Positions 2,799 to 43,433 of a DNA stretch of 64,000 bases are shown one piece after another. The position numbers and the translations under genes were made by a program. The DNA lies in the NCBI GenBank assembly GCA_022711395.1, contig JAKLFA010000004.1, positions 204,996 to 268,995 of the forward strand, written 5' to 3'. Source of the stretch: Candidatus Omnitrophota bacterium (lineage in GTDB: Bacteria > Omnitrophota > Gorgyraeia > Zapsychrales > JANLHA01). Numbering within the stretch: position 1 is the stretch's first letter; every line of letters begins with the position of its first letter. The notes under the pieces are model-generated. The model made no database searches. It was not told the origin of the DNA and saw nothing but the letters and a program-made list of their open reading frames with translations.

Positions 2799-3983
2799 CT
2801 ACTTTTTCTTCTTATAAACTCTCGGAAGGCGATTGCCTAAAGAGCAGACGATCTCATAGTTGATGGTCTGCGCCAAGCGGGCCAGCTCATCGGCAGAAAT
2901 CTCCTGCTTTTTCTGCTTACCCAGGATAACCGCCTCATCCCCGATCCTGACCTGCCCCGCCCTGGAAACGTCTGCCACAAGCTGGTCCATGGTCACCCGG
3001 CCCAGAACGGGGCAGCGGCAACCGTTGATAAGGACCGAAGATTTATTGGAAAAAGCGCGCATGTATCCGTCGTTATAACCGATCGGCAGTGTCGCCACCC
3101 TCATTTTGTGAGGAGCAATAAATGTCTGCCCGTAACTGACGCTTTGCCCTTTTTCAATATCCTTAACATACAGGACCCTGGCCTTCACGCTCATGGCCGG
3201 ATTCAATTTCAGAATTGCACTGGTCTTTTCAGACGGATAAAGACCGTAAAGCATCAGGCCCGGACGGACCAGGTTGAAGACCGATGCCTCAAAACCACCG
3301 AGGCCGGCGCTGTTGGCGGCATGAGCATAAGGGATCACTTCCCCGTTCTGGTCCAGGGCCAGGATCAGCTGCTTGAATTGATGGATCTGATGCTGAGTGA
3401 AGGTTGTATTCGTATCCGCGACGGGAAAGTGGGTATAAACCCCTTCGACCTTCACATGCGGAAGCTTTCTCACATGATGGATAAAGTCAGCCGCCTGCGT
3501 GTGCCAAACCCCGAGCCTGCCCATGCCGGTATCGACCTTGATGTGGACCACCGCCTTTTTTCTGAGCGAACGGGCGCAGGTGTTCAAGCTTTCGGCTGCC
3601 ACGCGCGTGCAGACCGTGGCGGTCAGATCATGATCCACAATATCCCTGATCTGGTTCGCCAAAGGACTTTCCAGGACAAGGATCGGCTTTTTAATCCCAT
3701 GCCGCCTTAATGTTATGCCTTCATGAACTTCCGAAACACCGAAAAGATCCACACCCAGCTTCTTGATCTGATCCACGACCTGAAGCATGCCATGCCCATA
3801 ACCATCCGCCTTGACGACAGCCAGGACCTTGGGGCTCTGCAGGCTGGTTTCTGGGACAGCCGCCACATCGCGGCATTCTATCTTCTTCTTATTGGCGAGC
3901 TTCTGGATGGCTGAAAAATTATGCCTGATCGCGTCTAAATCGACCTCGACCCAGGCAGTATGTTTATGCTTTTTAACAGGCAC
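2799..3983 (-). CDS. alr: alanine racemase
   Basis: VKADGYGHG PLP-lysine motif and overall Alr architecture. Confidence 0.85.
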   Translation of the reverse strand: MPVKKHKHTAWVEVDLDAIRHNFSAIQKLANKKKIECRDVAAVPETSLQSPKVLAVVKADGYGHGMLQVVDQIKKLGVDLFGVSEVHEGITLRRHGIKKPILVLESPLANQIRDIVDHDLTATVCTRVAAESLNTCARSLRKKAVVHIKVDTGMGRLGVWHTQAADFIHHVRKLPHVKVEGVYTHFPVADTNTTFTQHQIHQFKQLILALDQNGEVIPYAHAANSAGLGGFEASVFNLVRPGLMLYGLYPSEKTSAILKLNPAMSVKARVLYVKDIEKGQSVSYGQTFIAPHKMRVATLPIGYNDGYMRAFSNKSSVLINGCRCPVLGRVTMDQLVADVSRAGQVRIGDEAVILGKQKKQEISADELARLAQTINYEIVCSLGNRLPRVYKKKK

Positions 3984-4022
3984 ATCCGTCTCCTTTGCAT
4001 ATGCGCGGCTTCCAAAGCCGTT

Positions 4023-4718
4023 CTATCTTTTGACCTGACAATCCTGCGGATAAAGGTAAAGAGGAACCAGCGTGTTAATGTTGTCCGCGTCCTTTTTCTC
4101 AAAACGAGGCAACGCCAGCAAAGCGATCTGCCTTGCCGAAGGATACCAAAATTTTTCATCAAGGAAGGCCGGCTTGAACCCCGCGTTCCTGACCTTTGCC
4201 CTGCGGACGATCTCATCCTTATGGATCAAGATCCCGTCTCCGGCAAAAACGACCCTGCCGCCCATCTTACTTAGAAGATCATCCAGGCCGGTCAATAGGA
4301 ATTCTGAACACCGCGCGTTCTGCCCATCCTTGCGCTCATAAAGGGCGCTATAGACCATGTCCCGTTTGGCGTCAACGATCACGCACAGCTGTTCTTTTTC
4401 CTTGAGTTTGATCGATGCGGCGATCGCATCAAAACTGGCAACCCCCACCACCGGCTTGTTAAGGGCCAACGCCAACCCTTTGACCGTGGCAAAGCCAACA
4501 CGCAAGCTGGTGAAAGATCCCGGACCCAGTCCGACCGCGATCCCGTCGATATCTTGGGGCTTAAGACGCGCCGCCTTAAAAACGGCCTTAAGTGCGGGGA
4601 TCATCTTGGATGACAGAACCTTGTCATTCTTGATCACGCGCAAAGCCAGGACGTTCTGCCCATCCATTAGCCCGACGCTGAAATGTTTACTGGATGTATC
4701 GAGAGATAAGATTTTCAT
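4023..4718 (-). CDS. tsaB: tRNA t6A biosynthesis protein TsaB (YeaZ)
   Basis: MKILSLDTSS... inactive Kae1/YgjD-like fold. ATG confirmed at 4716-4718. Confidence 0.8.
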   Translation of the reverse strand: MKILSLDTSSKHFSVGLMDGQNVLALRVIKNDKVLSSKMIPALKAVFKAARLKPQDIDGIAVGLGPGSFTSLRVGFATVKGLALALNKPVVGVASFDAIAASIKLKEKEQLCVIVDAKRDMVYSALYERKDGQNARCSEFLLTGLDDLLSKMGGRVVFAGDGILIHKDEIVRRAKVRNAGFKPAFLDEKFWYPSARQIALLALPRFEKKDADNINTLVPLYLYPQDCQVKR

Positions 4719-4726
4719 ATTCTTGA

Positions 4727-5197
4727 TCACCTGATCCTGACCGCGCTCAGGAGCTGTTCATAGCGTTCTCCAACCGCCTTAAGCCGTATGTCGCGCACAT
4801 CCTCTCCGGTGTGCTCTAAATAAATATCCAGCCGCTCTTTAGGAAGCAGGGGGCCTAAGCGCTCTGACCACTCAATAATGGAAACGCCGCTGCCATAAAA
4901 AAATTCTTCGTATCCAATGTCAAACAGTTCTTGTTCTCTTTCCAAACGGTAAAGATCAAAATGAAAAATCGTCCTCTTGGCCTGGTCATAAACGTTGAGA
5001 AACACAAAAGTCGGGCTCGTCACGTCCTCTTCATGAGCCCCTAACCCGGACGCCAGCCCCTTAACCAGCGTCGTCTTTCCGCTGCCGAGATCTCCGAACA
5101 AACAAATAACATCCCCCGGCTTAACGAGTTTCGCCAGACGCTTGCCGATGTCCCGCGTTTCTTTGAATGATTGAGTGATAAATTGAAGTTGTTTCAT
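4727..5197 (-). CDS. tsaE: tRNA t6A biosynthesis ATPase TsaE (YjeE)
   Basis: P-loop GDLGSGKTT and YjeE-like length. Adjacent to tsaB. Confidence 0.8.
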   Translation of the reverse strand: MKQLQFITQSFKETRDIGKRLAKLVKPGDVICLFGDLGSGKTTLVKGLASGLGAHEEDVTSPTFVFLNVYDQAKRTIFHFDLYRLEREQELFDIGYEEFFYGSGVSIIEWSERLGPLLPKERLDIYLEHTGEDVRDIRLKAVGERYEQLLSAVRIR

Positions 5198-5218
5198 GCC
5201 CTTACGGCCGCCATACGG

Positions 5219-6124
5219 TTAAAAATGTTCAAACCCCTTGGGCTCGATCTGTCGCTTGCGCCCTTTTTCATCCACCAAGAACATTCCCGGCTTCGAACAG
5301 ATCGTTCCGATCTCAAAAAACCTGTATTTTTTACAGCGTCTCAAGGCATCCGCTTTCTGCGCGGGGACCGTAAAAAGCAGCTCAAAATCCTCACCATCAT
5401 GAAGGGCCTGATCCAAACTTGCGTCCTTAGCCAACGGAATATCCGTCGTCCGGATCACCGCCCCGAATCCGCTTTGCTCTAAAATATGGCCGAGATCTCC
5501 CGCCAGCCCGTCTGAAACATCAATCATGGCGTTGGGCCGGGCATGTTCGAGCAAATACTGCGCCTCGTTCACTCTCGGTGTGAAACAAGCGTGTTTACGG
5601 TTCTTGAACGAATTGCCGAGGCTGCCGGTCACAAAGATACAATCTCCCTTTTTGGCGCCGGCGCGATAGATCACCTGGTCCTTCTTTACCTTTCCAAGAA
5701 GGGCAACGTTGATGATCAGACGGTTGGACCGCGTCATATCCCCGCCCACCAGGCTGACATGATATTCCTTCGCCAGATCGTTGAAACCTTGTCCGATGTC
5801 CTCCAAAAAAGACCGGGAGGTATTATACGGTGCTCCGGTCGACACGACCGCGTATGTCGGGATGCCTCCCATGGCCGCGATATCACTGATCGAGCAGGCG
5901 AGCGCTTTTCGCCCGATCTCCTGTGGCGCCATGATCGTCCGCAAAAAATGAACTCCTTCAATGAGCATGTCCGTAGTGTAAAGCAGGTAGTCCTTCCCCC
6001 CGCAGTCCAGAACAGCCGCGTCATCCCCCACTCCCTTGATCACGCCCTCCTCGGTATGCGCCCGTGCAGCGATCCGGTCAATGAACCCAAACTCACCGAT
6101 ATCCGCAAGAGTTTGAATGGCCAT
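5219..6124 (-). CDS. thiL: thiamine-monophosphate kinase (PurM-like)
   Basis: N-terminal IGEFGFIDRI...GDDAAVL motif typical of ThiL. Confidence 0.75.
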   Translation of the reverse strand: MAIQTLADIGEFGFIDRIAARAHTEEGVIKGVGDDAAVLDCGGKDYLLYTTDMLIEGVHFLRTIMAPQEIGRKALACSISDIAAMGGIPTYAVVSTGAPYNTSRSFLEDIGQGFNDLAKEYHVSLVGGDMTRSNRLIINVALLGKVKKDQVIYRAGAKKGDCIFVTGSLGNSFKNRKHACFTPRVNEAQYLLEHARPNAMIDVSDGLAGDLGHILEQSGFGAVIRTTDIPLAKDASLDQALHDGEDFELLFTVPAQKADALRRCKKYRFFEIGTICSKPGMFLVDEKGRKRQIEPKGFEHF

Positions 6125-6145
6125 TGGGAACTCCTTTATTGAGAT

Positions 6146-7180
6146 TTATGAAAATATTTTTTTGATCGTTTTGTTAAAAGGCTTTTTTATAATGCCGCGC
6201 TCCGTCACAAATGCTGTGATCAGATCATGAGGGGTCACATCAAAGGCCGGGTTGAACACCGACACCGTTTTAGGGGCGATCGGACGCCCAGCCAGCTGAC
6301 GAACCTCTTGAGGGTCGCGCTCTTCGATCGGAATGTCGTTCCCTTTCAAGATCGCAAGATCGAACGTGGTCCGCGGGGCCACAACATAAAACGGGATCCT
6401 GTGATGTTTTGCCAGGACCGCCAGACCATAGGTTCCGATCTTATTGGCGGCATCACCATTGGCGGCGATCCGGTCCGCTCCGGTAAAGACCGCCCGGATG
6501 CCTTTGTCCCTCATTACGACAGAGGCCATGTTATCGGTGATCAGGGTCGTAGCAATACGCGCGTGGGTCAATTCCCAAGCCGTCAAGCGGGCGCCCTGCA
6601 AAAGCGGCCGTGTTTCGCAAGCGAAAACCTCAAATCGTTTGTCCGCCTTTTGAGCGGAATAAAAAACCCCTAAAGCCGTCCCATAGTCGACAGTGGCCAG
6701 GGCGCCAGCGTTGCAAATGGTCATCAGCCGGTCCCCGTTACGGATCAATCTCGCCCCATGATCCCCCATCGCGCGGCAGACCGCCCGGTCCGTCTCATAA
6801 ATTTCGAACGCCTTTTTCCGGATCACATCCTTTAATTTCGTAACAGAAGCTGACGGATATAACCAAGGCACCATGCGCATCGCTTCAAGTGAATGAAAAA
6901 GATTCACTGCCGTAGGGCGAGAGGTGGCAAGATAATCACAAACCTTGTTTAAGGAACTGATAAAAAGCTCTCGATCTTCCCCTTTAAAATCTTGCGTCCC
7001 CATCAGGACCCCGAACGCCGCAGCCGCACCCAACGCCGGCGCCCCACGAACCTCCAGCCGGCGGATCGCCAGCCAAAGCGTCCTTAACAAGCGGCAATCC
7101 TTATAAACCAGTTTTTGCGGAAGCTTCGTCTGATCGATAATACGAACGGCCTTATTTTTGAATTGGATCGTCTTGATCAT
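6146..7180 (-). CDS. mtnA: S-methyl-5-thioribose-1-phosphate isomerase / eIF-2B-like family
   Basis: GAPALGAAAAFG motif and eIF-2B alpha/beta/delta family architecture. Confidence 0.7.
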   Translation of the reverse strand: MIKTIQFKNKAVRIIDQTKLPQKLVYKDCRLLRTLWLAIRRLEVRGAPALGAAAAFGVLMGTQDFKGEDRELFISSLNKVCDYLATSRPTAVNLFHSLEAMRMVPWLYPSASVTKLKDVIRKKAFEIYETDRAVCRAMGDHGARLIRNGDRLMTICNAGALATVDYGTALGVFYSAQKADKRFEVFACETRPLLQGARLTAWELTHARIATTLITDNMASVVMRDKGIRAVFTGADRIAANGDAANKIGTYGLAVLAKHHRIPFYVVAPRTTFDLAILKGNDIPIEERDPQEVRQLAGRPIAPKTVSVFNPAFDVTPHDLITAFVTERGIIKKPFNKTIKKIFS

Positions 7181-8688
7181 GTTTTCTCTGTTTCGATCCG
7201 CGGAAAAAGCGGTTCATGGGCCTTCAATTGGACGCCGGGCTTAAGGCCTCCCCATAAAATGTCCGCGCGGTCATCGCCCAGAACATCCAAGACCTGACGG
7301 GTCTTTTCCGGCATCACCGGGCTCAAGAACACCGCAGCGATCCGCAGCGCCTCGGTCGCGGTATAAAGGATCGTCCCCGTTCGAGCGAGATCTGTTTTGA
7401 CGACTTTCCAGGGAGCCTGCCGTTCAATATAGGTATTGACATTTCTGACCAGTGCCATGGTCTGTTCGATCGCATCATGAATACGCATCTGGCCGATCAG
7501 ATCTGGAATCTTCTCCGGAAGAGTGCGGCTTGCGAAATCCTGAATTTGCTCGTCCTCCACAAGACGTTGCGCGGGCTGCGGGACGGTCCCGCCAAAATAT
7601 TTCCCGATCAAACCGCTTACACGGTTCAAAAGGTTCCCGAAATCATTGGCCAGATCGCTGTTATACCTTTTCACAAAAGATTCGACCGAAAAATTCGAGT
7701 CCATCCCCAGCACCATCTCGCGCATCAGGTAATACCGCACCGCATCCACGCCGTATTCATCAACCAGCCCTAATGGATCAACGATATTCCCCAGCGACTT
7801 GCTCATCTTGGTGTCCCCGGTGAGCCACCATCCATGGGCAAAGATCATCCGCGGCAGCTCGACGCCCAGTGAAAAGAGCATCGTCGGCCAATAGATCGCA
7901 TGCGTCATCAGGATGTCTTTACCGATCAGCTGAACGGTCACCGGCCACCATTCCCGAAAGCGCGCTTCATCCGACCCCCACCCCATGGCAGAGATGTAAT
8001 TCATTAACGCGTCGAACCAGACATAAGTCACATAATCCTTATCGAATGGGAGTTCGATCCCCCAGCTTAACCGGGATTTCGGCCGTGAAATGCACAGGTC
8101 CCCCAAAGGCTGGCGCAAAAATCCCAAGATCTCATTGCGCCGGCTTTCGGGCTGGATAAAGCCGGGATTGTTTTCAACATGATCGATCAGACGATTCTGA
8201 TACTTGCTCATACGGAAAAAATAATTCTTTTCCTTAAGTTTTTTGACATCCCGGAACTGCCCAGACTGCATTTCAGTCTCGGTGATGAACCGTTCTTCCG
8301 CGACTGAATACCATCCTTCATATTCATCAGCATAGACATCTCCGTTGTCAAAGACCTTCTGCAAGGCCAACTGAACGATCCTCTTATGCCGGTCTTCCGT
8401 TGTGCGTATAAAATCATCATACTGGATCTCAAGCCGCTGCCACAGCGTCTTAAACCGCGGAGCCATCTCATCGGCATGGAGTTGAGGCTCAAGCCCCCGT
8501 TTCTCAGCGGCCTGCTGGACTTTCTGCCCGTGTTCATCCACGCCGGTAAGAAAAAAAGACTTCTGCCCCTGCGTGCGGTGATACCGTGTCAGGACATCCG
8601 CCAGGATCGTCGTGTAGGCATGACCGATATGGGGCTTGTCATTGACGTAATAGATCGGGGTCGTTACATAAAAATGATTGTCCTGCAT
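7177..8688 (-). CDS. metG: methionyl-tRNA synthetase (short form, no C-terminal tRNA-binding domain)
   Basis: HIGH-type motif PHIGHAYT and KMSKS motif. 503 aa. Confidence 0.9.
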   Translation of the reverse strand: MQDNHFYVTTPIYYVNDKPHIGHAYTTILADVLTRYHRTQGQKSFFLTGVDEHGQKVQQAAEKRGLEPQLHADEMAPRFKTLWQRLEIQYDDFIRTTEDRHKRIVQLALQKVFDNGDVYADEYEGWYSVAEERFITETEMQSGQFRDVKKLKEKNYFFRMSKYQNRLIDHVENNPGFIQPESRRNEILGFLRQPLGDLCISRPKSRLSWGIELPFDKDYVTYVWFDALMNYISAMGWGSDEARFREWWPVTVQLIGKDILMTHAIYWPTMLFSLGVELPRMIFAHGWWLTGDTKMSKSLGNIVDPLGLVDEYGVDAVRYYLMREMVLGMDSNFSVESFVKRYNSDLANDFGNLLNRVSGLIGKYFGGTVPQPAQRLVEDEQIQDFASRTLPEKIPDLIGQMRIHDAIEQTMALVRNVNTYIERQAPWKVVKTDLARTGTILYTATEALRIAAVFLSPVMPEKTRQVLDVLGDDRADILWGGLKPGVQLKAHEPLFPRIETEKT

Positions 8689-8691
8689 AGC

Positions 8692-9561
8692 CTATCCCTC
8701 GTCTCCATTCATAACGATATCATCGTCCTGTCCGATCAATTCTTCTTCCGCCGTCTCCGACGGCCCTGTTTCAGCCGCAGGATATTCGATCCTGACCGTT
8801 TTTCCTTCCAGCAGATCGATCACGGCAAACCGCTTCAGGATGTTCACGTCCCGGACGCGGCCGCGGCCATCAGGCGTCGTGACCTTATCCCCTACCCGGG
8901 GAAGCCCTTTGGAAAGTTCACGGTAGACCTTAAATTCGTAGGCCATGCAACACTTGATGCGGCCGCACACCCCTGAGATCCTTGATGGGTTTAGTGGCAG
9001 CGCCTGGTCTTTGGCCATCTTGATGGACAGGGGGAAAAATTTCTTGATATAACACGAACAGCACAACTCGCAGCCGCACACGCCAAAACCTTTGACCATC
9101 TTCGCCTTGTCTCTTACAGGGATCTGCCGCAGCTCGATGCGGACACGGAAGATCTTGGCCAGATCTTTGACCAGGGCACGAAAATCCACGCGCTGGTCCG
9201 CCGTGAAATAAAAAATGATCTTGCTGCAATCAAACGTGTATTCCGCCTTAAAGATCCTCATATCCAGTTTGCGCTCGTTGACCTTGCGGACGCAAGCGTT
9301 GATCGCGTCTTTGGCCTTGCCGAGATTGTTGCTGATCTGGTTACGGTCCCCTTCTGTGACCTTTCGCAAGATCTTTCCGACCGGTTTAATGGCCTCATCC
9401 AAATTCTCTTCGTGTTCCGGATGGGACACGACGCGCCCAAATTCCGTGCCGCGGTCCACTTCCAAGATCACATAATCATCCCGGAGGCATTCCACGCCGT
9501 TAAGTTCAGCGTATTCCACCGGTCTAAAATGTCCAAGTTGGACCTGTACTAATTTGCCCAT
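8692..9561 (-). CDS. ricT: PSP1 C-terminal domain protein (YaaT/RicT-like)
   Basis: PSP1-type sequence with cysteine-rich segment. Conserved position upstream of holB-tmk as in Bacillus yaaT. Confidence 0.7.
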   Translation of the reverse strand: MGKLVQVQLGHFRPVEYAELNGVECLRDDYVILEVDRGTEFGRVVSHPEHEENLDEAIKPVGKILRKVTEGDRNQISNNLGKAKDAINACVRKVNERKLDMRIFKAEYTFDCSKIIFYFTADQRVDFRALVKDLAKIFRVRIELRQIPVRDKAKMVKGFGVCGCELCCSCYIKKFFPLSIKMAKDQALPLNPSRISGVCGRIKCCMAYEFKVYRELSKGLPRVGDKVTTPDGRGRVRDVNILKRFAVIDLLEGKTVRIEYPAAETGPSETAEEELIGQDDDIVMNGDEG

Positions 9562-10499
9562 AGCTGCTCCTTTAACAACATCAAAGGGATCTTCACGTTC
9601 AGATTCTCATCGATCATCTTGCGGGTCTTGACGATCGTTTGAAGAATGCCTTTAAGCTGTTCATCTGTGTAGTGCGATGCCTGCTGTTGCAGGTCCTTCA
9701 GCCGGTCAGCATGCACCACCCGTTCATCCCCGGCCCCCGCTTTTAAAAGTAAAATGTCCCGACACCAGCTCATCAAAATACTTAACGCCTCTTTTCCCTC
9801 ATCACCGTCCGATGACAAAAACTTAAGGTCCGCTTCCGCTATTTCTCCGCGGGTAAACTGGTCAATGATACTGTTCTTTTTTTTCAAAAAACCCTTTTCC
9901 CGCAGCTCATACGCGCGTCCCCGGCACCCTTCCGAGAACTGAGCCAAACAGCTGGCCTCCTCCCGCGGCAATCCGTCCCTGATCATCATCGCCATCAAGG
10001 CTTCACGGGGCAGAGCCGAAAATATCACGGCCTGACACCTTGAGCGTATGGTCGGCAAAACACGTTCCTTTACCGCTGAGGTCAGAATAAGCAGACTCTC
10101 TTTTGTGGGCTCTTCCAGCGTTTTTAATAAAGCGTTCGCCGCTTCGGTCGTCAAGGTCTCTGCATCCTTCAAAATAAAGACCTTGCACCTGGCCTCAAAA
10201 GCCCTCAGTTGGACCCTGCCGATCAGTTCCCTGATCTGGTCGATCTTGACCGATGCCTCGTCGCCGCGTTCAACCATCATCACATCCGGATGATTGCCTT
10301 TCCCGATCTTAAGGCACGAAGGACATTGCCCGCAAAATCCCGATTCGCCAGGGTCTTCACTCTGGCAATTCAACATGCTGGCGACGGCCAAGGCCGTCTC
10401 GATCTTCCCGGATCCTTTAGGGCCCACAAAAAGATACGCGTGGGCCAGACACCCGCGGTCCCGCATATCTTGAAAATGTTTGATGACATTCTGGTTCAT
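9549..10499 (-). CDS. holB: DNA polymerase III delta-prime subunit
   Basis: HAYLFVGPKGSGK Walker A and C-x2-C-x?-C zinc module. ATG at 10497-10499 preferred over the upstream TTG. Confidence 0.8.
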   Translation of the reverse strand: MNQNVIKHFQDMRDRGCLAHAYLFVGPKGSGKIETALAVASMLNCQSEDPGESGFCGQCPSCLKIGKGNHPDVMMVERGDEASVKIDQIRELIGRVQLRAFEARCKVFILKDAETLTTEAANALLKTLEEPTKESLLILTSAVKERVLPTIRSRCQAVIFSALPREALMAMMIRDGLPREEASCLAQFSEGCRGRAYELREKGFLKKKNSIIDQFTRGEIAEADLKFLSSDGDEGKEALSILMSWCRDILLLKAGAGDERVVHADRLKDLQQQASHYTDEQLKGILQTIVKTRKMIDENLNVKIPLMLLKEQLWAN

Positions 10500-10510
10500 C
10501 TTCTCCGCCG

Positions 10511-11134
10511 CTATTGTTGAGAAAGGCAATGTTCGATATGCGCCTTGACTTCCTGAAAGATCTCCTCTTTGCCCCGGTCGACCCGGATGACCCTAAACCG
10601 CCCCGGGTCCTCTTTAGCCAATTGCAGATACCCAGAGCGCACCCGTTTGTGATAATCCAAGGACCGTTGTTCAATACGGTCCTTATTCTGTCCGGCGCGA
10701 CGCAGTCCCTCTTCCGTCTCAATGTCGAACAATAAGGTCATATCCGGCCGAACTTTCTGCGTGGAAAAGGCCCCGATATCTTGAATGGTCTTGAGGTCCA
10801 TCCCGTGGCCATAACCCTGATAAACGATCGTCGAATCCAAAAAGCGGTCGCACAGGACGACCTTCCCGCAGGCCAGGGCAGGACGGATCACTTCCCCGAC
10901 CAATTGAGCGCGCGCCGCCATATATAAAAGCACCTCACATTCATTATTCATCTCCGTGTTCTTAACATCCAGCAGGACCTTGCGGATCAGTTCGCTGATC
11001 TTCACCCCGCCGGGCTCACGGATCAAAAGGACATCCAACCCCTTTTTCTTAAGCTCAGTTTCGATCAAAGCGATCTGCGTGCTTTTCCCTGATCCTTCTG
11101 AGCCTTCGAACGTGATAAAAAGACCTTTTTTCAT
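10511..11134 (-). CDS. tmk: thymidylate kinase
   Basis: ITFEGSEGSGKST P-loop and DRF/LID motifs. ATG at 11132-11134 abuts the cysS stop. Confidence 0.9.
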   Translation of the reverse strand: MKKGLFITFEGSEGSGKSTQIALIETELKKKGLDVLLIREPGGVKISELIRKVLLDVKNTEMNNECEVLLYMAARAQLVGEVIRPALACGKVVLCDRFLDSTIVYQGYGHGMDLKTIQDIGAFSTQKVRPDMTLLFDIETEEGLRRAGQNKDRIEQRSLDYHKRVRSGYLQLAKEDPGRFRVIRVDRGKEEIFQEVKAHIEHCLSQQ

Positions 11135-12543: not shown

Positions 12544-12555
12544 TTCTCCCTGCTC

Positions 12556-13287: not shown

Positions 13288-13395
13288 TTCCGAATATTTC
13301 TCACGACTGTTTTTTGTTCATAAACAATATAACCAGCAGAACCACCCCGATGATCACCCATAGCATGATCATGATCTCCTCCTGACAAGTGCGCC

Positions 13396-13881: not shown

Positions 13882-13891
13882 GGCCCCTCCT

Positions 13892-14566: not shown

Positions 14567-14570
14567 AGAT

Positions 14571-15551: not shown

Positions 15552-15572
15552 CGTTTCATTCCTTGGTCGAGA

Positions 15573-16946: not shown

Positions 16947-16953
16947 CATTTCC

Positions 16954-28048: not shown

Positions 28049-28075
28049 ACAAACGTCCTTCACCGTAATGATCAT

Positions 28076-29398: not shown

Positions 29399-29406
29399 GT
29401 TCTTCC

Positions 29407-30450: not shown

Positions 30451-30468
30451 ATCTTCCCCAATATAGTT

Positions 30469-30523: not shown

Positions 30524-30537
30524 ATCTGATACAAAAT

Positions 30538-31050: not shown

Positions 31051-31070
31051 CCTCCTTATAAGTTGTAAAA

Positions 31071-33389: not shown

Positions 33390-33423
33390 GATGAATCGAT
33401 TATACGGTCTCCCTAAACGCATG

Positions 33424-34755: not shown

Positions 34756-35180
34756 ACTCGGACTTTAGCCTTTACATCCGGATGAAGCTGGACGCCAATA
34801 TCGTAAATGCCCAGCTCATCGATCGGTTTTTCCAGTTCGATGGCCTTTTTATCGATCTCAAAACCGTCATCGCTGAATGCCTTCGCAATGTCGGCCTCCG
34901 TGATCGAACCATACATCTTCTCAAGGTCGTTGACCTCAACAGTGATGGTGATCGAAGCCTTCTCCAGCTTCTCGGCCAGCCCCAGAGCCTCGCCCTTCTT
35001 CTGCTCATACTCCTGGGCCTGCTTCGCTTTCTGCTGCTCGATCTTTTTCACGTTCCCAGGTGTCGCAACAAAAGCCATGTTCCGTGGAAAAAGATAGTTA
35101 CGCGCATAGCCGTCCTTGACCTTGACCACGTCCCCGATCTTCCCGAGCTTTTTAATGGTTTGACAAAGAATGACTTCCAT
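34737..35180 (-). CDS. rplI: 50S ribosomal protein L9
   Basis: MEVILCQTIKKLGKIGDVVKVKDGYARNYLFP. Confidence 0.9.
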   Translation of the reverse strand: MEVILCQTIKKLGKIGDVVKVKDGYARNYLFPRNMAFVATPGNVKKIEQQKAKQAQEYEQKKGEALGLAEKLEKASITITVEVNDLEKMYGSITEADIAKAFSDDGFEIDKKAIELEKPIDELGIYDIGVQLHPDVKAKVRVWVAKK

Positions 35181-35251
35181 GACCCGTCCTTTATTTATAC
35201 ATTAGACGATTAACAGATTCCTCAACTCAATCTTGGAACGGAACCCTTCCG

Positions 35252-35503
35252 TTACTTTCGCTTAGCCGCTCCGACCGGCAACAAGCCCAAATACCTGGCC
35301 CGTTTGATCGCATTCGAGATCTGCCGTTGCTGCTGAGCCGTGACGCCACTTAACCGACGGGATATGATCTTTCCCCGGTCCGTTAAATATTTCTTGATGA
35401 GATCCACGTCCTTATAGGAGATCTGCAGATCCTTCTCAATCACGTATTTAACCGATCGCTTCCTCGGTTTCAGGATTTTTTTTCGAAACGTTTTCTTAAC
35501 CAA
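35252..35503 (-). CDS. rpsR: 30S ribosomal protein S18
   Basis: [29 protein letters not shown]. Confidence 0.9.
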
Positions 35504-35537
35504 TTTCCCCTCCTTAACACATCGATATCAAATCAGT

Positions 35538-35966
35538 TTATTCATCCCAAGCTACATCTTCTGGCATAATGGCCTGATCATCCGCTGAATGATCCAAAGA
35601 CAGGCCATCACCTGATCCGTCTTCACCCTGCCCCGGTGAAAATTTACCCAAGAACTGAACCCGCTCCGCACGCACATCGATCGTGCTGCGTTTCTGCCCG
35701 TCGGTTGTCTCCCATGAACGGGATTGAAGCACTCCTTCTACAAAAATAGGGCTTCCTTTTTTAAGGTGCTGACAGCACGCCTCTGCCTGTTTGTCCCATA
35801 CCGTTACCGTCAAAAAGCAGACGTCTTCTTTCAGCTCACCTGTTTTGTCCCGAAAACGGCGGTTGACCGCAAGGCCTAAATTCGCGACGGGCACGCCTGC
35901 CGGCGTGTATCTCAATTCCGGGTCGCGCGTCAGGTTCCCGATCAAAAACGTTTTGTTCAAATTCGC
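35538..35966 (-). CDS. ssb: single-stranded DNA-binding protein
   Basis: OB-fold MANLNKTFLIGNLTRDPELRYTPAG and an acidic C-terminal tip. Internal start chosen so that it does not overlap rpsF. Confidence 0.85.
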   Translation of the reverse strand, partial: ANLNKTFLIGNLTRDPELRYTPAGVPVANLGLAVNRRFRDKTGELKEDVCFLTVTVWDKQAEACCQHLKKGSPIFVEGVLQSRSWETTDGQKRSTIDVRAERVQFLGKFSPGQGEDGSGDGLSLDHSADDQAIMPEDVAWDE

Positions 35967-36046
35967 CATTGTCCCCTCCTGCCACGTAATAATGTTAACC
36001 CACAAACTCTGTTCTTCCGGCTTTGAACCGGCATGACCGACCGGTC

Positions 36047-36328
36047 CTATGCGACAATCAGCGACCTCAAAACACGCTCGTTTAACTTCAAAGCACGTCT
36101 CAATTCCGCATTTTTGGCAGGGTTGCCTTCGTAATTGATCATATAATATGTTCCCTCGGAACACTTTTTCATACGAAAAGACATCCGGTGCTTATCAACC
36201 CACACCTGGCTGTTGATCACTTTTCCATCGCACTTTTGAATGGCCTCGCCGATCTCTTTGACCACAGCGTCCTTCTGTTCCTGCGGAAGCGTCGCGTCCA
36301 CAATGACCACTAATTCATACTTATTCAT
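36047..36328 (-). CDS. rpsF: 30S ribosomal protein S6
   Basis: MNKYELVVIVDATLPQEQ... S6 sequence. Conserved rpsF-ssb-rpsR order. Confidence 0.85.
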   Translation of the reverse strand: MNKYELVVIVDATLPQEQKDAVVKEIGEAIQKCDGKVINSQVWVDKHRMSFRMKKCSEGTYYMINYEGNPAKNAELRRALKLNERVLRSLIVA

Positions 36329-36911
36329 TATCCTTCCTTTTGTTGAATTGACTCATAACCTTTTCTATATCCGTTTCTTCAACCCACGCCCGGCAACAAT
36401 CAGAAGCTTCAGAAATGATAGCATCCAGCTCTCGCCGTTCTTCTGCAGAAAAGGCCGATAATACATAATCTGCCGGGTCTTGCCGGGAAGGCGGATTGCC
36501 CACTCCCAAGCGCAGCCTCATAAAATCCTGCGTCCCCAGATTTTCAATAATCGATTTCAATCCGTTATGGCCGCCGTCACTGCCTTTTGACCTTAAACGC
36601 AACTGGCCAAATTCCAGGCTGAAATCATCGCAAACAACCAAGCTTTCTGCTGGCTCCACTTTATAATATGAAAGTGCTCCGGCAACGGCCTGCCCGGACA
36701 GATTCATATAGGTCATCGGCATCAGCACGACAACCTTAACTTCCCCTAAACGGAACTGCGCCTCAAGCCCCCTGCAACAGCGGCTTGAAGAAAAGGACGC
36801 CTTCGCATCCTCCACAAAACGGCTCACAACCAAAAACCCCAAGTTGTGCCGCGTCCATTCATATTCTGCGCCGGGGTTACCCAACCCAGCGATCAACTTT
36901 GTCTGCAACAC
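36321..36911 (-). CDS. pth: peptidyl-tRNA hydrolase
   Basis: GLGNPGAEYEWTRHNLGF motif. Confidence 0.9.
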   Translation of the reverse strand: MLQTKLIAGLGNPGAEYEWTRHNLGFLVVSRFVEDAKASFSSSRCCRGLEAQFRLGEVKVVVLMPMTYMNLSGQAVAGALSYYKVEPAESLVVCDDFSLEFGQLRLRSKGSDGGHNGLKSIIENLGTQDFMRLRLGVGNPPSRQDPADYVLSAFSAEERRELDAIISEASDCCRAWVEETDIEKVMSQFNKRKDNE

Positions 36912-36935
36912 TCCTCCGGTCCCTTATTTGGTGTC

Positions 36936-37619
36936 CTACTTACCGCCACCTTCCGCCTTGCCTTCCCCTTCATCCGCTTTCGCCTTCTCCTTCTTGATCA
37001 CTTCAGGCTCCGCCCCCGGCTCGACCGCCGCAGGCGTTTCCTCTTCACGGCGAGGAGGGATAACTGAGAACACGATCGCCTCCGGGTCATGTTTGGTCTC
37101 AACCCCTTTAGGCAACTGAATGTTGGAAACACAGATCACTTGGCCGATCTCAAGCGCGGCAACATCGACCTCGATCTGCTCGGGAATATCCATCGGCAAA
37201 CAAACGATATCGAGTTCCCAAAGAATGTGTTCCAAAGAACCTTTGTCACGCTTCACCCCGATAGGTTCGCCCTTGGGCGCTAACGGAACGCGGACTTCGA
37301 TCTTTTCTTTCAAAGAAATGCGTTTAAAATCAACATGGATGATCTGGTCCGTGACATAATCATGCTGTTCTTCTTTAACGATCGCGGAATAATCACGAAC
37401 TCCCTTTTCACCCTCTTTGACATTGAGATGGAACAAAACCTCGCCATGATGCTGACGTCGCACGCGCTCATAGGTCCTGCGATCCACCTGTACCGGAGTC
37501 GGCTCCTGGTCCCCTCCATAAACGATCCCGGGGATCACGTCCCCTGTGCGCCGAAGGCCTTTTACCTTTTGGCCGCCGACTTCACTGCGAATTTGCACAT
37601 CAATTTTAACTTCTTCCAT
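36936..37619 (-). CDS. rplY: 50S ribosomal protein L25 / general stress protein Ctc
   Basis: L25 N-terminal domain plus Ctc-type C-terminal domain and a Lys/Glu/Ala-rich tail. Confidence 0.85.
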   Translation of the reverse strand: MEEVKIDVQIRSEVGGQKVKGLRRTGDVIPGIVYGGDQEPTPVQVDRRTYERVRRQHHGEVLFHLNVKEGEKGVRDYSAIVKEEQHDYVTDQIIHVDFKRISLKEKIEVRVPLAPKGEPIGVKRDKGSLEHILWELDIVCLPMDIPEQIEVDVAALEIGQVICVSNIQLPKGVETKHDPEAIVFSVIPPRREEETPAAVEPGAEPEVIKKEKAKADEGEGKAEGGGK

Positions 37620-37664
37620 TGCTCACTTCCTACCTTTGTATCGAACGGTTAAACGGAACTTGGT

Positions 37665-38609
37665 TTACTCAAACAAACAACTGATCGAAGCCTCATTATG
37701 AATACGATAAATCGCGTCCGCCAATAGAGGAGCGATCGTCACCGTAGTGATCTTCGGATTCGATTTTGTCTTTCGAAATGGGATGCTGTCTGTAATGACC
37801 ACTTCTTTCAGCACGGAACAATCCTGAATACGCTGAAGCGCGCTTCCCGAAAGAACACCGTGGCTGATCGCCGCATAGACCTCAAGAGCACCTTTCTTCC
37901 GCAAGCTTTCTGCTGCTTCAACCAAAGACCCTGCGGTGGCAACAATATCATCAACGATGACCGCGATCTTGTTTCGCACAGAACCCAAAATATGCATGAC
38001 CTCGGTCTTTTCAGGGCTCATCCGGCGTTTATCAACGACCGCAAGCGACGCCCCCAGCCGTTTCGAATAAGCGCGGGCCATTTTGATGCTCCCCACATCC
38101 GGAGAGACCACCACCAATTTTCGCCGGTCAAGGTTCTTGGTGCGGAAATAGTCACACAAAGAATGGATCGCATAAAGATGATCCACTGGAATATCAAAGA
38201 AGCCCTGAATCTGGCTGGCGTGAAGGTCCATGGTCAAAACACGGTTGGCCCCCGCCCCATGAATAAGATTAGCGACCAACTTCGCGGTGATCGGAACGCG
38301 TGGTTTATCCTTGCGGTCCTGACGGGCATATCCGTAATACGGCAATACCGCGGTGATCCGTTTAGCGGAAGCCCGGCGCGCCGCGTCGATCAGGACCAAA
38401 AGTTCCATCAGGTTATCATTGGCCGGCGGACAGGTCGGCTGAACAATGAACGTGTCCTTCCCCCGGATATTTTCCAAGATCTGAACGCGGATCTCTCCTT
38501 CGCTAAAACGGCCGACCAGAGCCTTCGTCAAAGAAATATGAAGATTCGTGCAGATCCTTTTTCCCAGCTCCGGATTTGCATTGCCGACCACAATAGCTAA
38601 ACCATCCAT
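37665..38609 (-). CDS. prs: ribose-phosphate pyrophosphokinase
   Basis: PRPP synthetase motifs including the PRPP-binding site VDDIVATAGS. Confidence 0.9.
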   Translation of the reverse strand: MDGLAIVVGNANPELGKRICTNLHISLTKALVGRFSEGEIRVQILENIRGKDTFIVQPTCPPANDNLMELLVLIDAARRASAKRITAVLPYYGYARQDRKDKPRVPITAKLVANLIHGAGANRVLTMDLHASQIQGFFDIPVDHLYAIHSLCDYFRTKNLDRRKLVVVSPDVGSIKMARAYSKRLGASLAVVDKRRMSPEKTEVMHILGSVRNKIAVIVDDIVATAGSLVEAAESLRKKGALEVYAAISHGVLSGSALQRIQDCSVLKEVVITDSIPFRKTKSNPKITTVTIAPLLADAIYRIHNEASISCLFE

Positions 38610-38626
38610 GAACCCTCTCCTTACTG

Positions 38627-39886
38627 TTATATTTTTCGCTTTCCGATGATCTTCCCAGGAACGCCGACCATCACGTGATGATCAGGAAGCGTCTTTTCCT
38701 TGGCCACGACGCATCCCGCACCGGTGACCGCCTGTTTTCCGATCTTCACCGGAGCCACCAAAATAGAATCTGATCCGATAAAAGCCCCATCCCCCAAACG
38801 GGTCAGGTGCTTTTCCTTCCCGTCAAAATTCGCGGTCACGACGCCAGCACCGATATTGACCTCGCGGCCAGCGACCGTGTCCCCCAAAAAGCTGAAATGC
38901 TTCATAAAGCTCTGGTCACCGATCGTGGAACGCGACACCTCTGTAAAATTACCGATCTCCACGTTATTGCCGATCTTGGTTCCTGGGCGGAAATGGGCGA
39001 ACGGCCCGATCACGCAATCTTTGCCGATCACAACGTTCTCTTCGATCACCGTGAACGGTTTGATCAGCGTTCCCCTGCCAATCTTGACATCGGCATCGAT
39101 GAAGGTCGTGGCTGGATCCACGATCGAGATCCCGTCCAACATAAACTTTTGCAGGATCCTTTGCCGCAAAACAGCTGCCGCACTGGCCAATTCTGCCTGT
39201 GTATTGATCCCCCAGCCTTCTTGAGGGCTGTCCGTTTCCATCGTTTCAATTTTCAAATTGCGCGCCGCCATGATCTCAACAACGTCTGTCAGATAAAATT
39301 CCTTCTTCTTGGGGTTCATTTTAACCAGCGGTAATGTTTTTAAAAGCGATTCATTCTTAAAACAATACACCCCGACATTGATCTCTAAAATGGACCGTTC
39401 GGACTCCAAGAGGTCTTTGTCCTCCCGGATAGCGATCGCTTGGCCATCCGTCGTGCGAAGGATCCGTCCATACCCCGAAGGATTTCCCACCACCGCTGTC
39501 AAGACCGTACAGCTGGCCCCGGTCTGACGGTGTTTCTTCACCAAGGCCTTCAGCGTTTCCGCCTTCAACAACGGCGTGTCTCCGCACAGGACAAGAACAT
39601 CTCCTCTAAAATCTTTCAAAAACCCTTCGACGCGCCTGACCGCATCCGCCGTCCCCAAAAGCTCCTTTTGAAGGACCGGCTCAACGCCTTCTCCCAAAAT
39701 CTTTTGCACTTTCTCAGCCTCATGGCCTACCACAACATACGATGTCAAAGAACCAGCCGACTGGACGGCCTTAAGCACATAGGACAACATCGGACGGCCG
39801 CATACGGGATGAAGGACCTTCGGCAGATCAGACTTCATCCGCGTCCCTTTTCCTGCCGCCAAAATGATCGCCCTTAATTCTTTCAT
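38627..39886 (-). CDS. glmU: bifunctional GlcNAc-1-P uridyltransferase / GlcN-1-P acetyltransferase
   Basis: ILAAGKGTRMKS nucleotidyltransferase motif and a C-terminal hexapeptide-repeat domain. Confidence 0.85.
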   Translation of the reverse strand: MKELRAIILAAGKGTRMKSDLPKVLHPVCGRPMLSYVLKAVQSAGSLTSYVVVGHEAEKVQKILGEGVEPVLQKELLGTADAVRRVEGFLKDFRGDVLVLCGDTPLLKAETLKALVKKHRQTGASCTVLTAVVGNPSGYGRILRTTDGQAIAIREDKDLLESERSILEINVGVYCFKNESLLKTLPLVKMNPKKKEFYLTDVVEIMAARNLKIETMETDSPQEGWGINTQAELASAAAVLRQRILQKFMLDGISIVDPATTFIDADVKIGRGTLIKPFTVIEENVVIGKDCVIGPFAHFRPGTKIGNNVEIGNFTEVSRSTIGDQSFMKHFSFLGDTVAGREVNIGAGVVTANFDGKEKHLTRLGDGAFIGSDSILVAPVKIGKQAVTGAGCVVAKEKTLPDHHVMVGVPGKIIGKRKI

Positions 39887-39908
39887 TTTAAAAAACTGAG
39901 TCGAAATA

Positions 39909-39979
39909 CTGCCCGGCCTGGATTCGAACCAGGAATGCGAGATCCAAATTCTCGAGTGTTACCATTACACTACCAGGCA
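39909..39979 (-). tRNA. tRNA-Gln (anticodon UUG)
   Basis: Manual cloverleaf fold: 7-bp acceptor stem (U1:A72, as in E. coli tRNA-Gln), D-arm GTGT/ACAC, anticodon stem CGAGA/TCTCG with loop ATTTGGA, T-arm CCTGG-TTCGAAT-CCAGG, discriminator G. Confidence 0.8.
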
Positions 39980-40013
39980 AAAACTCTTGCCTTTTTTAAA
40001 CGGTTCGTTCGCT

Positions 40014-40391
40014 CTATTTGTCTGCGGGATTTTCGGCCTCATAGGCCTTTAGCACTTCGGACTGTAAATAATCTCGGAACTCCTGAGTGATCGGATGAGC
40101 AATATCCCGATGTTCTGCCTTTGCATCACGGGCCAAGTCCTCTTCCGACGCCGGCTTTAGTTCCGCCCCGCATTGATTACAATATTTGCTCCCGACTTCA
40201 TTCTTAAAGCTGCACCTAGGACAAGGGGTTTTCATCTTCCGTGACGGCATGGCAATGAACATTCCGGTCGAGCCCTGGATAATCTTGATATTGCGGATCA
40301 CAAATGCCCCATCAAAGGTCACCGTGGCATAGGCCTTAAGCTTCTTATCCTGTCCTTCTTTCGAAAAAACGCGGACTTCCGTAATCTTCAT
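40014..40391 (-). CDS. spoVG: SpoVG-family protein with an internal C4 zinc-ribbon insertion
   Basis: SpoVG core on both sides (MKITEVRVF...GMFIAMPSRK and ...RDIAHPITQEFRDYL). Interrupted by CPRCSFKNEVGSKYCNQCG plus an acidic linker. Confidence 0.75.
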   Translation of the reverse strand: MKITEVRVFSKEGQDKKLKAYATVTFDGAFVIRNIKIIQGSTGMFIAMPSRKMKTPCPRCSFKNEVGSKYCNQCGAELKPASEEDLARDAKAEHRDIAHPITQEFRDYLQSEVLKAYEAENPADK

Positions 40392-40403
40392 CAGGAGCCT
40401 CCT

Positions 40404-41354
40404 TTAAAGAGTTCGTACGGCAAAAACCTGACTATAGTACTTGCTTAAAATACTCCGCCACTTTTCAGCCTCCGCTTTGGATGCCATCAATCCAAATAAC
40501 GAGGGGCCGCTTCCAGAGAACGAAACTCCTTGTAATCCCAACGCTTTTAAGCGTTCTTTAATGTCCGCCAGTCTTGGACAGACTGAAATAATCCCTTGTT
40601 CCAAATCATTGGAAAGAAGATCCCTAGACTTATTAATATCTTTTTCCAATAAAGAATGGATAAGGATATTAGCATTATCGGATGTCTTTGTCAACCTTTC
40701 GATTTTTTTAGCGGTTCCAGCCCGAAAATGCCTCTTTTTGCCATAAACAGAGCCGGAATTTCTGTTAAAAACCGAAATACTGGTCACTTCCAAATTCAAG
40801 GCCCCATACACCTTTGGGGTCGGCATTTTGATCTTAGGAACCACCAAAACGTGCCATATCTTTTGCCTTAAAGACACCGGCCGGATACGCTCCCCGCGCC
40901 GCTCGCCAATGGCCCAATTTACATCCCAAATAAAAAACGGCACATCACTGCCGATGCGGGCTGCACAGTCCAAAAGTTGTTTGCGGGATAAGCGAAGATT
41001 CCATAACCGGTTCAAGGCAAAAAGCGTTGTCGCCGCATTACTGGACCCCCCAGCCAGACCAGCCGCCACAGGAATATTTTTTTTGATCCTGACCTCAACA
41101 CCCTTGGTCACACCACAATATTGCTGCAAAAGAGACGCCGCTTTGTGAACAAGGTTCTGGCTTGTGCACGGCACGCCGGGGTGATCACAAAGTATGCGGA
41201 TCTCCTGCGAAGGAAGAATTCGAAAATGCATCTGATCACAGAGGCTGATACGCTCAAAAAGCGTGTGGATATTGTGAAACCCATCTGCCCGTCTGTTGAT
41301 CACTTTTAAGATGAGATTGACTTTAGCTGGCGAGTATAACTGTAACGCGTTCAT
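40404..41354 (-). CDS. ispE: 4-diphosphocytidyl-2-C-methyl-D-erythritol kinase
   Basis: GHMP kinase with PAKVNLILKV N-terminus and PVAAGLAGGSSNAA motif. Confidence 0.85.
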   Translation of the reverse strand: MNALQLYSPAKVNLILKVINRRADGFHNIHTLFERISLCDQMHFRILPSQEIRILCDHPGVPCTSQNLVHKAASLLQQYCGVTKGVEVRIKKNIPVAAGLAGGSSNAATTLFALNRLWNLRLSRKQLLDCAARIGSDVPFFIWDVNWAIGERRGERIRPVSLRQKIWHVLVVPKIKMPTPKVYGALNLEVTSISVFNRNSGSVYGKKRHFRAGTAKKIERLTKTSDNANILIHSLLEKDINKSRDLLSNDLEQGIISVCPRLADIKERLKALGLQGVSFSGSGPSLFGLMASKAEAEKWRSILSKYYSQVFAVRTL

Positions 41355-42349: not shown

Positions 42350-42435
42350 CTCAGAGATCCCAAGTGAGGATTCAAAAACAAATACAGAGGAGGCTCAACA
42401 GCCAAAGAACGGTGTTGAGCCTCTCAACGAACAGA

Positions 42436-42537
42436 TTACGACCAATCTCTCTTCTTGATATGACGCAGTGACTTTCTAAGTTTTTTACGCTTATGGGTCG
42501 TGATTTTTCTTCGCTTACGCTTCTTTCCGCAAGGCAT
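42436..42537 (-). CDS. 33-aa highly basic protein, possibly ribosomal protein bS22-like
   Basis: ATG with GGGAGAG SD. Translation: MPCGKKRKRRKITTHKRKKLRKSLRHIKKRDWS. Below the 60-aa cutoff of the ORF track. Confidence 0.4.
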   Translation of the reverse strand: MPCGKKRKRRKITTHKRKKLRKSLRHIKKRDWS

Positions 42538-42557
42538 AGCTTTATCTCTCTCCCTCT

Positions 42558-43433
42558 TTAAAAGATGATTTTGTTTAACGAATATTCGATAATTCCCTGT
42601 GCGCCGGCCGTTTTCAGCGCCGGGATCATGCTTCGCACTTTACTTTCATGGATCACGGTCTCGACAGCCAGCCAGCCTTCCTGGCTTAAATGCGAGATCG
42701 TGGGGTTTTGCAAGGACGTAAGCTGCTTCAAGACCTTTTCGAGGTTCTTTTCTTCAACGTTCATTTTCAATCCGACCATCCCGTCAGCGTCGATCGCTCC
42801 TTTTAATAACATCGTGATCTGGTCCATCTTGTTCTTTTTCCAAGCGTCTTTGGCCGACTGACGATTAGCTATAAACTGTGTCGTGGATTCGCAGATCGTA
42901 GAGACGATCCGTAGTTTGTTCGCCCGCAAACTGCTCCCTGTTTCGGTCAATTCGACCACCGCGTCCACCAGCCCTGAGGCGACCTTCGCCTCGGTGGCAC
43001 CCCAACTGAACTCCACATCCGCTTTGACATTGTTTTCTTTCAAATACTGTTTCGTAACATTCACGAGCTCCGTAGCGATCCGTTTTCCCTCCAAATCCTT
43101 GACGGATTTGATCTTGGAATCCTCCGGAACGGCCAAAACCCAGCGGACCTTAACTGCTGACTGTTTGGCATAAACCAAATCCGCAAGCGGAAGGACCTTC
43201 GAACTGTTTTCAAGGGTCCAGTCCGCCCCTGTGATCCCGCAGTCCAGAACGCCATCTTCCACATAACGAGAAATCTCCTGGGCCCTCAAAAGGACAGGCT
43301 CGATCTCAGCATCATCAATAGAAGGAAAATACGACCGGCCAGAAATATAGATCTTGAATCCCGCCCGCTCAAAAACCTTGAACGTCGCCTCCTGCAAGCT
43401 TCCTTTTGGCAAGCCGAGTTTTAGTGTCCCCAT
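42558..43433 (-). CDS. hisG: ATP phosphoribosyltransferase, long form with C-terminal regulatory domain
   Basis: HisG N-terminal sequence at ~290 aa. No other his genes adjacent. Confidence 0.85.

Follow-up and report, generated by a model that had tools for sequence, protein, structure and literature searches.

A one-stranded array of core genes in a Candidatus Omnitrophota contig, its conserved order and its likeness to Firmicutes-type gene order

Genes of the array and its surroundings

We analysed a 64-kb window (64,000 nucleotides) of contig JAKLFA010000004.1 from the assembly GCA_022711395.1, labelled Candidatus Omnitrophota bacterium, and in it an array of housekeeping and outer-membrane genes at positions 2799..43433. 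By ORF (open reading frame) listing, translation and NCBIfam/Pfam scans, the array holds 42 protein-coding genes and one tRNA-Gln gene, all on the minus strand, as an earlier note on this DNA had stated. The plus-strand ORFs within it are shadow ORFs, each lying inside a minus-strand gene with a strong family match. The array is compact, with ~97% coding sequence and ~1.2 kb of non-coding DNA out of 40.6 kb. Fourteen junctions overlap, the widest intergenic gap is 208 bp, and gaps of 108–208 bp part several blocks of the array. Forty-three co-oriented genes would arise by chance with a probability of ~7e-11 at a strand bias of 58%, and of ~2e-5 at 78%, assuming an independence that operon membership breaks. 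The one-strand array is far beyond chance.

In the order of transcription, the array begins with hisG (42558–43433; HisG and HisG_C domains) and a gene for a TPR protein (41351–42349). They are followed by ispE, spoVG, tRNA-Gln, glmU, prs, ctc/rplY and pth (36321..41354), and then by rpsF, ssb, rpsR, rplI and dnaB (33424..36328). The pairing of a TPR gene with ispE is found in other phyla too. The tRNA-Gln (UUG, 39908–39980) was the single tRNA and sole hit of the Rfam scan of the window, which returned no rRNA operon. The middle of the array consists of an outer-membrane and lipid A block, namely bamA, skp, lpxD, an lpxC/fabZ fusion, lpxA and lpxI (26422..33389), and of lysS, a lolC/E-like permease gene, a lolD-like ATPase gene and ilvE (22000..26263). 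The Lol scores were slightly under the equivalog cut-offs. In the last third are mcsA, mcsB and clpC (17964..21973), an orphan ORF of 324 aa with a hydrophobic N-terminal segment (16954..17928), and radA, yacL (PIN/TRAM), ispD, ispF, cysE and cysS (11131..16976). The array ends with tmk, holB, ricT/yaaT and metG (7177..11146), followed by mtnA, thiL, tsaE, tsaB and alr (2799..7180).

The family scans verified each gene name given in the earlier note, and two of its placements had to be corrected. The genes lptF (612–1703) and lptG (1691–2791), which it had counted within the array, are outside it on the plus strand, together with a phosphoribosyltransferase-domain (ComF-like) gene (13..2791 for all three). 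The unknown gene it had placed between radA and yacL is the orphan between clpC and radA; radA and yacL are direct neighbours, 21 bp apart. Nor is the minus-strand run confined to 2.8–43.4 kb, as had been thought. A PpiD/SurA_N-like rotamase gene (43583..45100, plus strand) is the sole opposite-strand gene breaking it, and beyond this gene 20 functionally unrelated genes continue on the minus strand to 62799. Encoded in this continuation (45182..62799) are AhpC/TSA, CutA, Cu-oxidase_4, RmuC, T2SSE ATPase, RtcB, DinB, HhH-GPD, ABC-F and RluB-like proteins, a SpoU methylase, a GH5 protein, a hydrolase, two response regulators, a dCMP deaminase, and TtcA-like, PEBP and DPBB proteins. Most of this continuation matches the order of two other loci (L174 and L175). 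A plus-strand gene with PIN and PhoH-like ATPase domains (62982..64000) leaves the window at its end. It is the real gene at that place, and a minus-strand ORF there (62946–63443) was rejected as spurious.

Several individual genes had features of their own. In SpoVG (40014–40391, minus strand), ~40 inserted residues form a zinc ribbon (CPxC-x12-CNQC; matching Pfam DZR and Zn_Ribbon_1). Eleven Omnitrophota loci have kept this insertion, which was found neither in the SpoVG of Acidobacteriota nor in one further locus (L029). The lpxC/fabZ fusion (28076–29398, minus strand) matched NF009667 with 479 bits, above the cut-off. LpxI (26422–27240, minus strand) has both Pfam LpxI domains, and its gene is located 3' of lpxA, where E. 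coli has lpxB. Neither lpxB nor lpxH was found in the 64-kb window.

Lineage, conserved order and the McsA-McsB-ClpC cassette

In a scan of one genome per GTDB species, the best DnaB matches were Omnitrophota metagenome-assembled genomes (MAGs), with 60–72% identity, some of them bearing outdated Planctomycetales labels. Desulfobacterota/Nitrospirota (55–59%) and Bacillota/Negativicutes (51–55%) came next. In a neighbour-joining tree of DnaB, the window fell inside the Omnitrophota clade, beside Omnitrophica WOR_2 and Candidatus Aceula lacicola, and Bacillota and Negativicutes formed a separate, distant clade. A RmuC labelled Candidatus Omnitrophota bacterium at NCBI aligned to 98% of the window's ORF with 100% identity, and the NCBI taxonomy has Omnitrophota within the PVC group. 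We assign the source to Candidatus Omnitrophota, a diderm lineage of the PVC group, on the strength of these sequence comparisons. The earlier note had left the choice between an affinity to Negativicutes/Halanaerobiales and a diderm candidate phylum. Phylogenetic placement, run with dnaB alone, spoke for the candidate phylum and, with the NCBI label, against the other option. The diderm character agrees with the presence of bamA, skp, lpxD, lpxC/fabZ, lpxA, lpxI, lptFG and the lolCD-like pair.

All window proteins were compared by tblastn with the 20-kb dnaB neighbourhoods of 80 genomes. In all 31 Omnitrophota loci (31/31), every one of the 388 homologues detected was collinear with the window and had the same orientation. 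Directly after dnaB came bamA in 27/27 Omnitrophota loci, versus 0/11 other loci. Three McsB neighbourhoods (L171–L173), on contigs of 0.88–3.36 Mb, carried the genes from skp to holB on a single strand and in window order, including the ilvE-mcsA-mcsB-clpC junctions. A RadA scan of metagenome contigs, which among the matches listed gave four close relatives and others with ~50% identity, informed on the half from radA to mtnA and on Firmicute-like comparators, not on the region upstream of radA. Two of its loci (L095 and L110) had radA through metG in window order, and L095 extended to mtnA. Two RmuC neighbourhoods (L174 and L175) carried a series of response regulator, hydrolase, GH5 (in one of them), SpoU methylase, RluB-like, ABC-F, HhH-GPD, RmuC, Cu-oxidase_4, CutA and AhpC/TSA genes, followed by the opposite-strand ppiD and by hisG through pth. 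The lone plus-strand ppiD kept its orientation in L174, L175 and L010.

From five additional long-contig loci, the collinear backbone covers ~57 kb of the window (~2.8–60 kb), and the collinearity holds at roughly 60–70% protein identity. These comparisons indicate that the array order is the norm in Omnitrophota, and that the window is a typical segment of an Omnitrophota chromosome. The earlier note had named, as speaking against its own reading, a lineage in which this gene order is not unusual. Omnitrophota is such a lineage, with the order invariant in 31/31 loci and in five more.

The sequence is metagenome-derived, and a chimeric contig, in which faulty assembly or binning joined Firmicutes and Gram-negative fragments, could give a similar mixture of genes. 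We rejected this explanation as scarcely credible. Four independent assemblies (JGI, ENA, Logan) have the dnaB-bamA and pth-rpsF junctions in common, and identical copies of window proteins were found in several such metagenome assemblies. The flanks of the window match a 323-kb contig and further JGI contigs, the same order is found in >30 MAGs of unrelated studies, and both GC content and GC skew are homogeneous.

Some genes of the window vary between the collinear loci. Searches with the orphan (16954–17928) gave no match in Pfam, in NCBIfam or among PDB sequences; in L171 and L173, a gene of equal size, likewise without family, occupies its position between clpC and radA, and none is there in L172. 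The genes for the T2SSE/MshEN ATPase, the RtcB RNA ligase and DinB (Pol IV), at 48120–52598 on the minus strand between HhH-GPD and RmuC, form a lineage-specific insertion, which is not at that position in L174 and L175. A gene of the GH5 cellulase family (57682–58899, minus strand), amid the SpoU methylase, RluB-like and ABC-F genes, is at the same place in L174, and not in L175.

The cassette mcsA-mcsB-clpC, of all parts of the array the one most reminiscent of Firmicutes, encodes a potential phospho-arginine system. McsB (20385–21440, protein arginine kinase) scored 441.6 bits against NF002194, versus a cut-off of 385, and annotations of its homologues include the domains PF00217 (ATP-gua_Ptrans) and PF27454 (McsB_C). 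Four CxxC motifs and a UVR motif are present in McsA, whose score of 155.5 bits against NF053706 is under the cut-off of 210. Both Clp_N repeats of ClpC bear GTEH, and the protein also has a short middle domain with UVR and an LGF loop. No ctsR was found: in the window, ilvE ends 26 bp before mcsA, and the arrangement is the same in L171–L173.

More than 100 McsB clusters had 70–99% identity to the window, and all organism-named ones were Omnitrophota. The next-nearest clusters, with 45–50% identity, were from Omnitrophota, Planctomycetota, Candidatus Dependentiae and Bacillota MAGs (including P0241–P0250), and McsB from Firmicute-like loci had 31–45%. At E <= 1e-30, the family comprised 1827 clusters (50% identity). 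This distribution points to a family reaching far beyond the Gram-positive organisms used so far to study it. The phospho-arginine system has been treated as a Firmicutes feature, having been studied almost solely there, and its prevalence elsewhere is unclear (PMC9604228). Our literature search gave nothing tying McsB or the phospho-arginine system to Omnitrophota. The predicted ctsR-less McsA-McsB-ClpC system, which appears conserved phylum-wide in Omnitrophota, is apparently undescribed, and would add a diderm phylum to the Gram-positive bacteria in which the phospho-arginine system has been investigated.

An ancient horizontal transfer from Bacillota into the ancestor of Omnitrophota could have brought in mcsA-mcsB-clpC, and perhaps spoVG, ricT and yacL. 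It would fit with the near-restriction of phospho-arginine studies to Firmicutes and with the presence of Bacillota MAGs, at ~46% identity, among the nearest McsB clusters outside Omnitrophota. However, McsB homologues labelled Planctomycetota and Dependentiae are just as close. The cassette, without ctsR, is at one and the same place between ilvE and radA in all four genomes examined, and the strong conservation of McsB within the phylum fits long vertical inheritance. Further, spoVG, yacL and radA-ispDF were found in Acidobacteriota and Methylomirabilota. We therefore consider such a transfer unlikely.

Strand bias and transcription units

Strands were counted over the window and a 10-kb flank on each side, 83 kb together, with the flank genes taken from JGI gene calls. 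On the minus strand were 62/68 genes in the window and 79/88 over the 83 kb (~90%). The leftmost 13 kb are mixed, with six plus-strand and six minus-strand genes, and aceE-aceF-lpdA and comF-lptFG are on the plus strand there. The GC skew of the plus strand was negative in every 4-kb window over the 83 kb. At third codon positions, it was -0.18 in four plus-strand genes and -0.16 in minus-strand genes, compared with -0.17 in intergenic DNA. A similar third-position skew in both gene orientations means that the asymmetry goes with the DNA strand and does not depend on which strand is coding, a signature of replication. The leading strand usually has more G than C. The G-rich minus strand is most likely the leading strand, and the region most likely lies within one replichore. 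The earlier note had proposed one replichore with a leading-strand gene preference and a GC-skew check of the contig. The check, run over the 83 kb, gave a skew whose sign did not change with gene orientation and supports the proposal, the identity of the leading strand being presumed.

Just left of the window is a pyruvate dehydrogenase operon (E1-E2-E3; aceE-aceF-lpdA) on the plus strand (L085, 1–10000). The GC skew weakens to -0.035 in this flank, which may mark the approximate end of the strongly biased region.

In published surveys, the mean strand bias is 78% in PolC-bearing species and 58% in others, and the published lists of phyla with PolC do not include Omnitrophota. A figure of 70% for other phyla came from a crude longest-ORF caller, noisy on high-GC loci, and is indicative only. 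Searching the literature for Omnitrophota and the leading strand gave nothing, and among the titles found for Omnitrophota and PolC none was on Omnitrophota replication. A text search of a 2026 preprint on complete Omnitrophota genomes (10.64898/2026.06.07.730766) found no mention of GC skew, replichore or PolC, and its sole passage on gene order or synteny deals with the ribosomal-protein operon.

With respect to transcription, two promoters of perfect consensus (12/12, TTGACA-17-TATAAT) were recognized on the minus strand, one at the dnaB/bamA junction (33399..33427) and one upstream of lysS (26331..26359). By our own estimate, ~0.01 such sites are expected by chance per 20 kb. A third promoter-like site, with 11/12 positions, is upstream of hisG (43505..43533). 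At the dnaB/bamA junction, the promoter overlaps with its -35 element the stop codon of dnaB, and its -10 element comes to an end 9 nt short of the bamA ATG, which suggests that the bamA transcript is leaderless or near-leaderless. The lysS promoter is followed by a 67-nt leader with a GGAAGG Shine-Dalgarno sequence. For bamA we took the signal-peptide ATG at 33389 as the start; the TTG of the longest ORF (33458) and the start called by JGI both probably lie too far 5'.

The array is most likely a chain of several long operons, not one transcript. If it were instead one giant operon, or very few, the common strand would require no replication-linked preference. The tiny gaps and the 14 overlapping junctions agree with a giant operon, as does the stretch of 2.5–22.5 kb, where neither promoter-like nor terminator-like sites were above shuffled controls. 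Against it are the strong internal promoters before bamA and lysS, and the gaps of 108–208 bp between several blocks. Moreover, the unrelated, non-essential genes at 45–62.8 kb and 11 more beyond the window share the strand, and the GC skew is strand-linked, opposite-strand genes included. A single giant operon was rejected as quite improbable.

Together, we read the region as a segment of an Omnitrophota chromosome in which core genes are arranged in a chain of long operons co-oriented with the replication fork, with old gene clusters joined in an invariant order (probability about 85%). The array would be a concatenation of very old clusters: TPR-ispE-spoVG-glmU-prs-ctc-pth, rpsF-ssb-rpsR-rplI-dnaB, bamA-skp-lpxD-fabZ-lpxA, mcsA-mcsB-clpC, radA-yacL-ispD-ispF-cysE-cysS, tmk-holB-ricT-metG and thiL-tsaE-tsaB. 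These clusters would have been retained in many phyla, including Bacillota, and in Omnitrophota have become fixed side by side. By established theory, co-orientation with the replication fork gives fewer head-on collisions for essential, highly expressed genes. Selection against head-on collisions of replication and transcription, together with few inversions, may have kept both strand and order. Transcription would start at several internal promoters of sigma-70 type, before hisG, bamA and lysS.

Several points weigh against this reading. Two loci with RadA of 63–65% identity (L091 and L092) are without clpC upstream of radA, so the array order is not universal across the whole phylum, and an RmuC locus without lineage assignment (L176) has mixed gene orientation. 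The lineage placement comes from a single-gene neighbour-joining tree and from database labels. The transcription units are deduced from consensus matches only, and the 2.5–22.5 kb stretch showed no excess of candidate signals. The call of the leading strand depends on the G > C rule, because origin and terminus are outside the 83 kb examined. Finally, the B. subtilis order used below is background knowledge, checked only indirectly, via Firmicute-like metagenome loci (L093, L107, L109 and L112).

Comparison with other phyla and known systems

In B. subtilis, the relevant blocks are mcsA-mcsB-clpC-radA...yacL-ispD-ispF...cysE-cysS, tmk...holB-yaaT...metS and ispE...spoVG-glmU-prs-ctc-pth. Bacillota also have rpsF-ssb-rpsR, rplI-dnaC(dnaB) and thiL-tsaE-tsaB, an origin-proximal position of such blocks, and a high strand bias. 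The window shares with Bacillota these blocks and the high strand bias. The Firmicute-like loci L093 and L112 carry mcsA-mcsB-clpC-radA, 1.3 kb of other sequence, yacL-ispD-ispF, at least 1.9 kb of other sequence, and (cysE)-cysS; L107 and L109 are the same up to yacL. Neither the gap of ~1.3 kb between radA and yacL nor the one of at least 1.9 kb between ispF and cysE exists in the window. The window also differs from Bacillota in having no ctsR and, with gaps of 4–108 bp, no room for the Bacillus disA or gltX between the blocks. Its blocks are fused in one array and interleaved with outer-membrane genes, and the protein identity to Bacillota is low (DnaB 51–55%, McsB 31–46%).

These data bear on a further explanation, by which the source would be a diderm member or sister lineage of Bacillota, similar to Negativicutes or Halanaerobiales, and the gene order would come from ancestry shared with Bacillus. 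The match of several blocks to the B. subtilis map, the mcsA-mcsB-clpC-radA-yacL-ispD-ispF-cysS order in L093 and L112, and the local strand bias of ~90% are in agreement with it. However, DnaB is closer to Omnitrophota (60–72%) than to Bacillota and Negativicutes, which form a separate clade, the organism label at NCBI is Omnitrophota, and McsB identity is 31–45% in Firmicute-like loci versus 70–99% within Omnitrophota. The gaps of the Firmicute-like loci, absent from the window, also argue against it. The comparison with Negativicutes gene order that the earlier note had proposed was run on four loci (L051, L061, L069 and L082), no Halanaerobiales locus having been retrieved. The only common block was (ssb-rpsR)-rplI-dnaB, and bamA was not beside dnaB. 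A diderm Firmicute was rejected as a very improbable source.

In Acidobacteriota (L052, L060 and L072), Methylomirabilota (L047 and L064) and Eremiobacterota (Baltobacteraceae, L049), the blocks are joined and co-oriented. The joined array reads TPR-ispE-(spoVG)-prs-ctc-pth-(rpsF/ssb)-rpsR-rplI-dnaB-radA-yacL-ispD-ispF-(cysS); in some loci, individual members were not detected. This arrangement is nearer to the window than the Bacillus arrangement is. It differs in that radA follows dnaB almost directly and glmU is not in the block, whereas in Omnitrophota bamA...lpxI, lysS, lolCD, ilvE and mcsAB-clpC are inserted between dnaB and radA.

E. coli K-12 has bamA-skp-lpxD-fabZ-lpxA, lolB-ispE-prs and rpsF-priB-rpsR-rplI (priB being a paralogue of ssb), with the internal order of the window. 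There, the three clusters are megabases apart; in the window, they are contiguous, lpxC is fused to fabZ, lpxI is in the place of lpxB, and dnaB directly precedes bamA.

The order had been described earlier as specifically Firmicutes-type. This does not hold, as ispE...pth, rpsF...dnaB and radA...cysS adjoin one another in MAGs of Acidobacteriota, Methylomirabilota and Eremiobacterota, and parts of these blocks are found in E. coli. The Firmicutes-like reading mostly follows from comparing with Bacillus alone. A Bacillus-like order combined with lipopolysaccharide genes does not speak for a diderm Firmicute, the blocks being widespread old clusters. The array is largely ordinary for Omnitrophota, and its invariant order could serve as a handy synteny marker for checking Omnitrophota bins.

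Compared with the phospho-arginine system of Bacillota, the cassette has the likenesses of a McsB over the curated cut-off, a McsA with CxxC and UVR motifs, and a ClpC with a UVR-bearing middle domain. It differs in the missing gene for the CtsR repressor and in the diderm host, for which the system is predicted from the genes.

Apparently undescribed are the strand bias of Bacillota level in this region, the long collinearity in a phylum of the PVC group, and the ctsR-less McsAB-ClpC. That Omnitrophota combine a strand bias of Bacillota level (~90%) and a collinear core segment of at least 57 kb, be it genome-wide or as a high-strand-bias (HSB) domain, with the ctsR-less McsA-McsB-ClpC, is a tentative proposal that we hold to be possible, though rather doubtful. 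If true, Omnitrophota would provide a second and independent case for testing what keeps up extreme strand bias in the absence of PolC. With its local bias of ~90% and its collinearity of ~57 kb, the phylum is a candidate for studying how strand bias is set, a question still open (PMC11237797).

The closest described kind of region is probably the conserved HSB region of Gemmatimonadota, a PolC-negative phylum, which is rich in core genes (Tomasch et al. 2024, mBio, PMC11237797). Such a region is recognized by a single strand carrying >90% of the genes along a long stretch, the counts here being 62/68 and, over 83 kb, 79/88, and by a conserved order within the phylum and an enrichment in core genes, both of which were found in Omnitrophota. 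The two are alike in having nearly all genes on one strand, an order kept within the phylum and a richness in core genes and in genes of high expression, and both phyla are off the published lists of PolC bearers. They differ in that the Gemmatimonadota region spans ~600 kb around the terminus and holds rRNA operons, whereas on the side of the window 83 kb were seen, with no rRNA operon.

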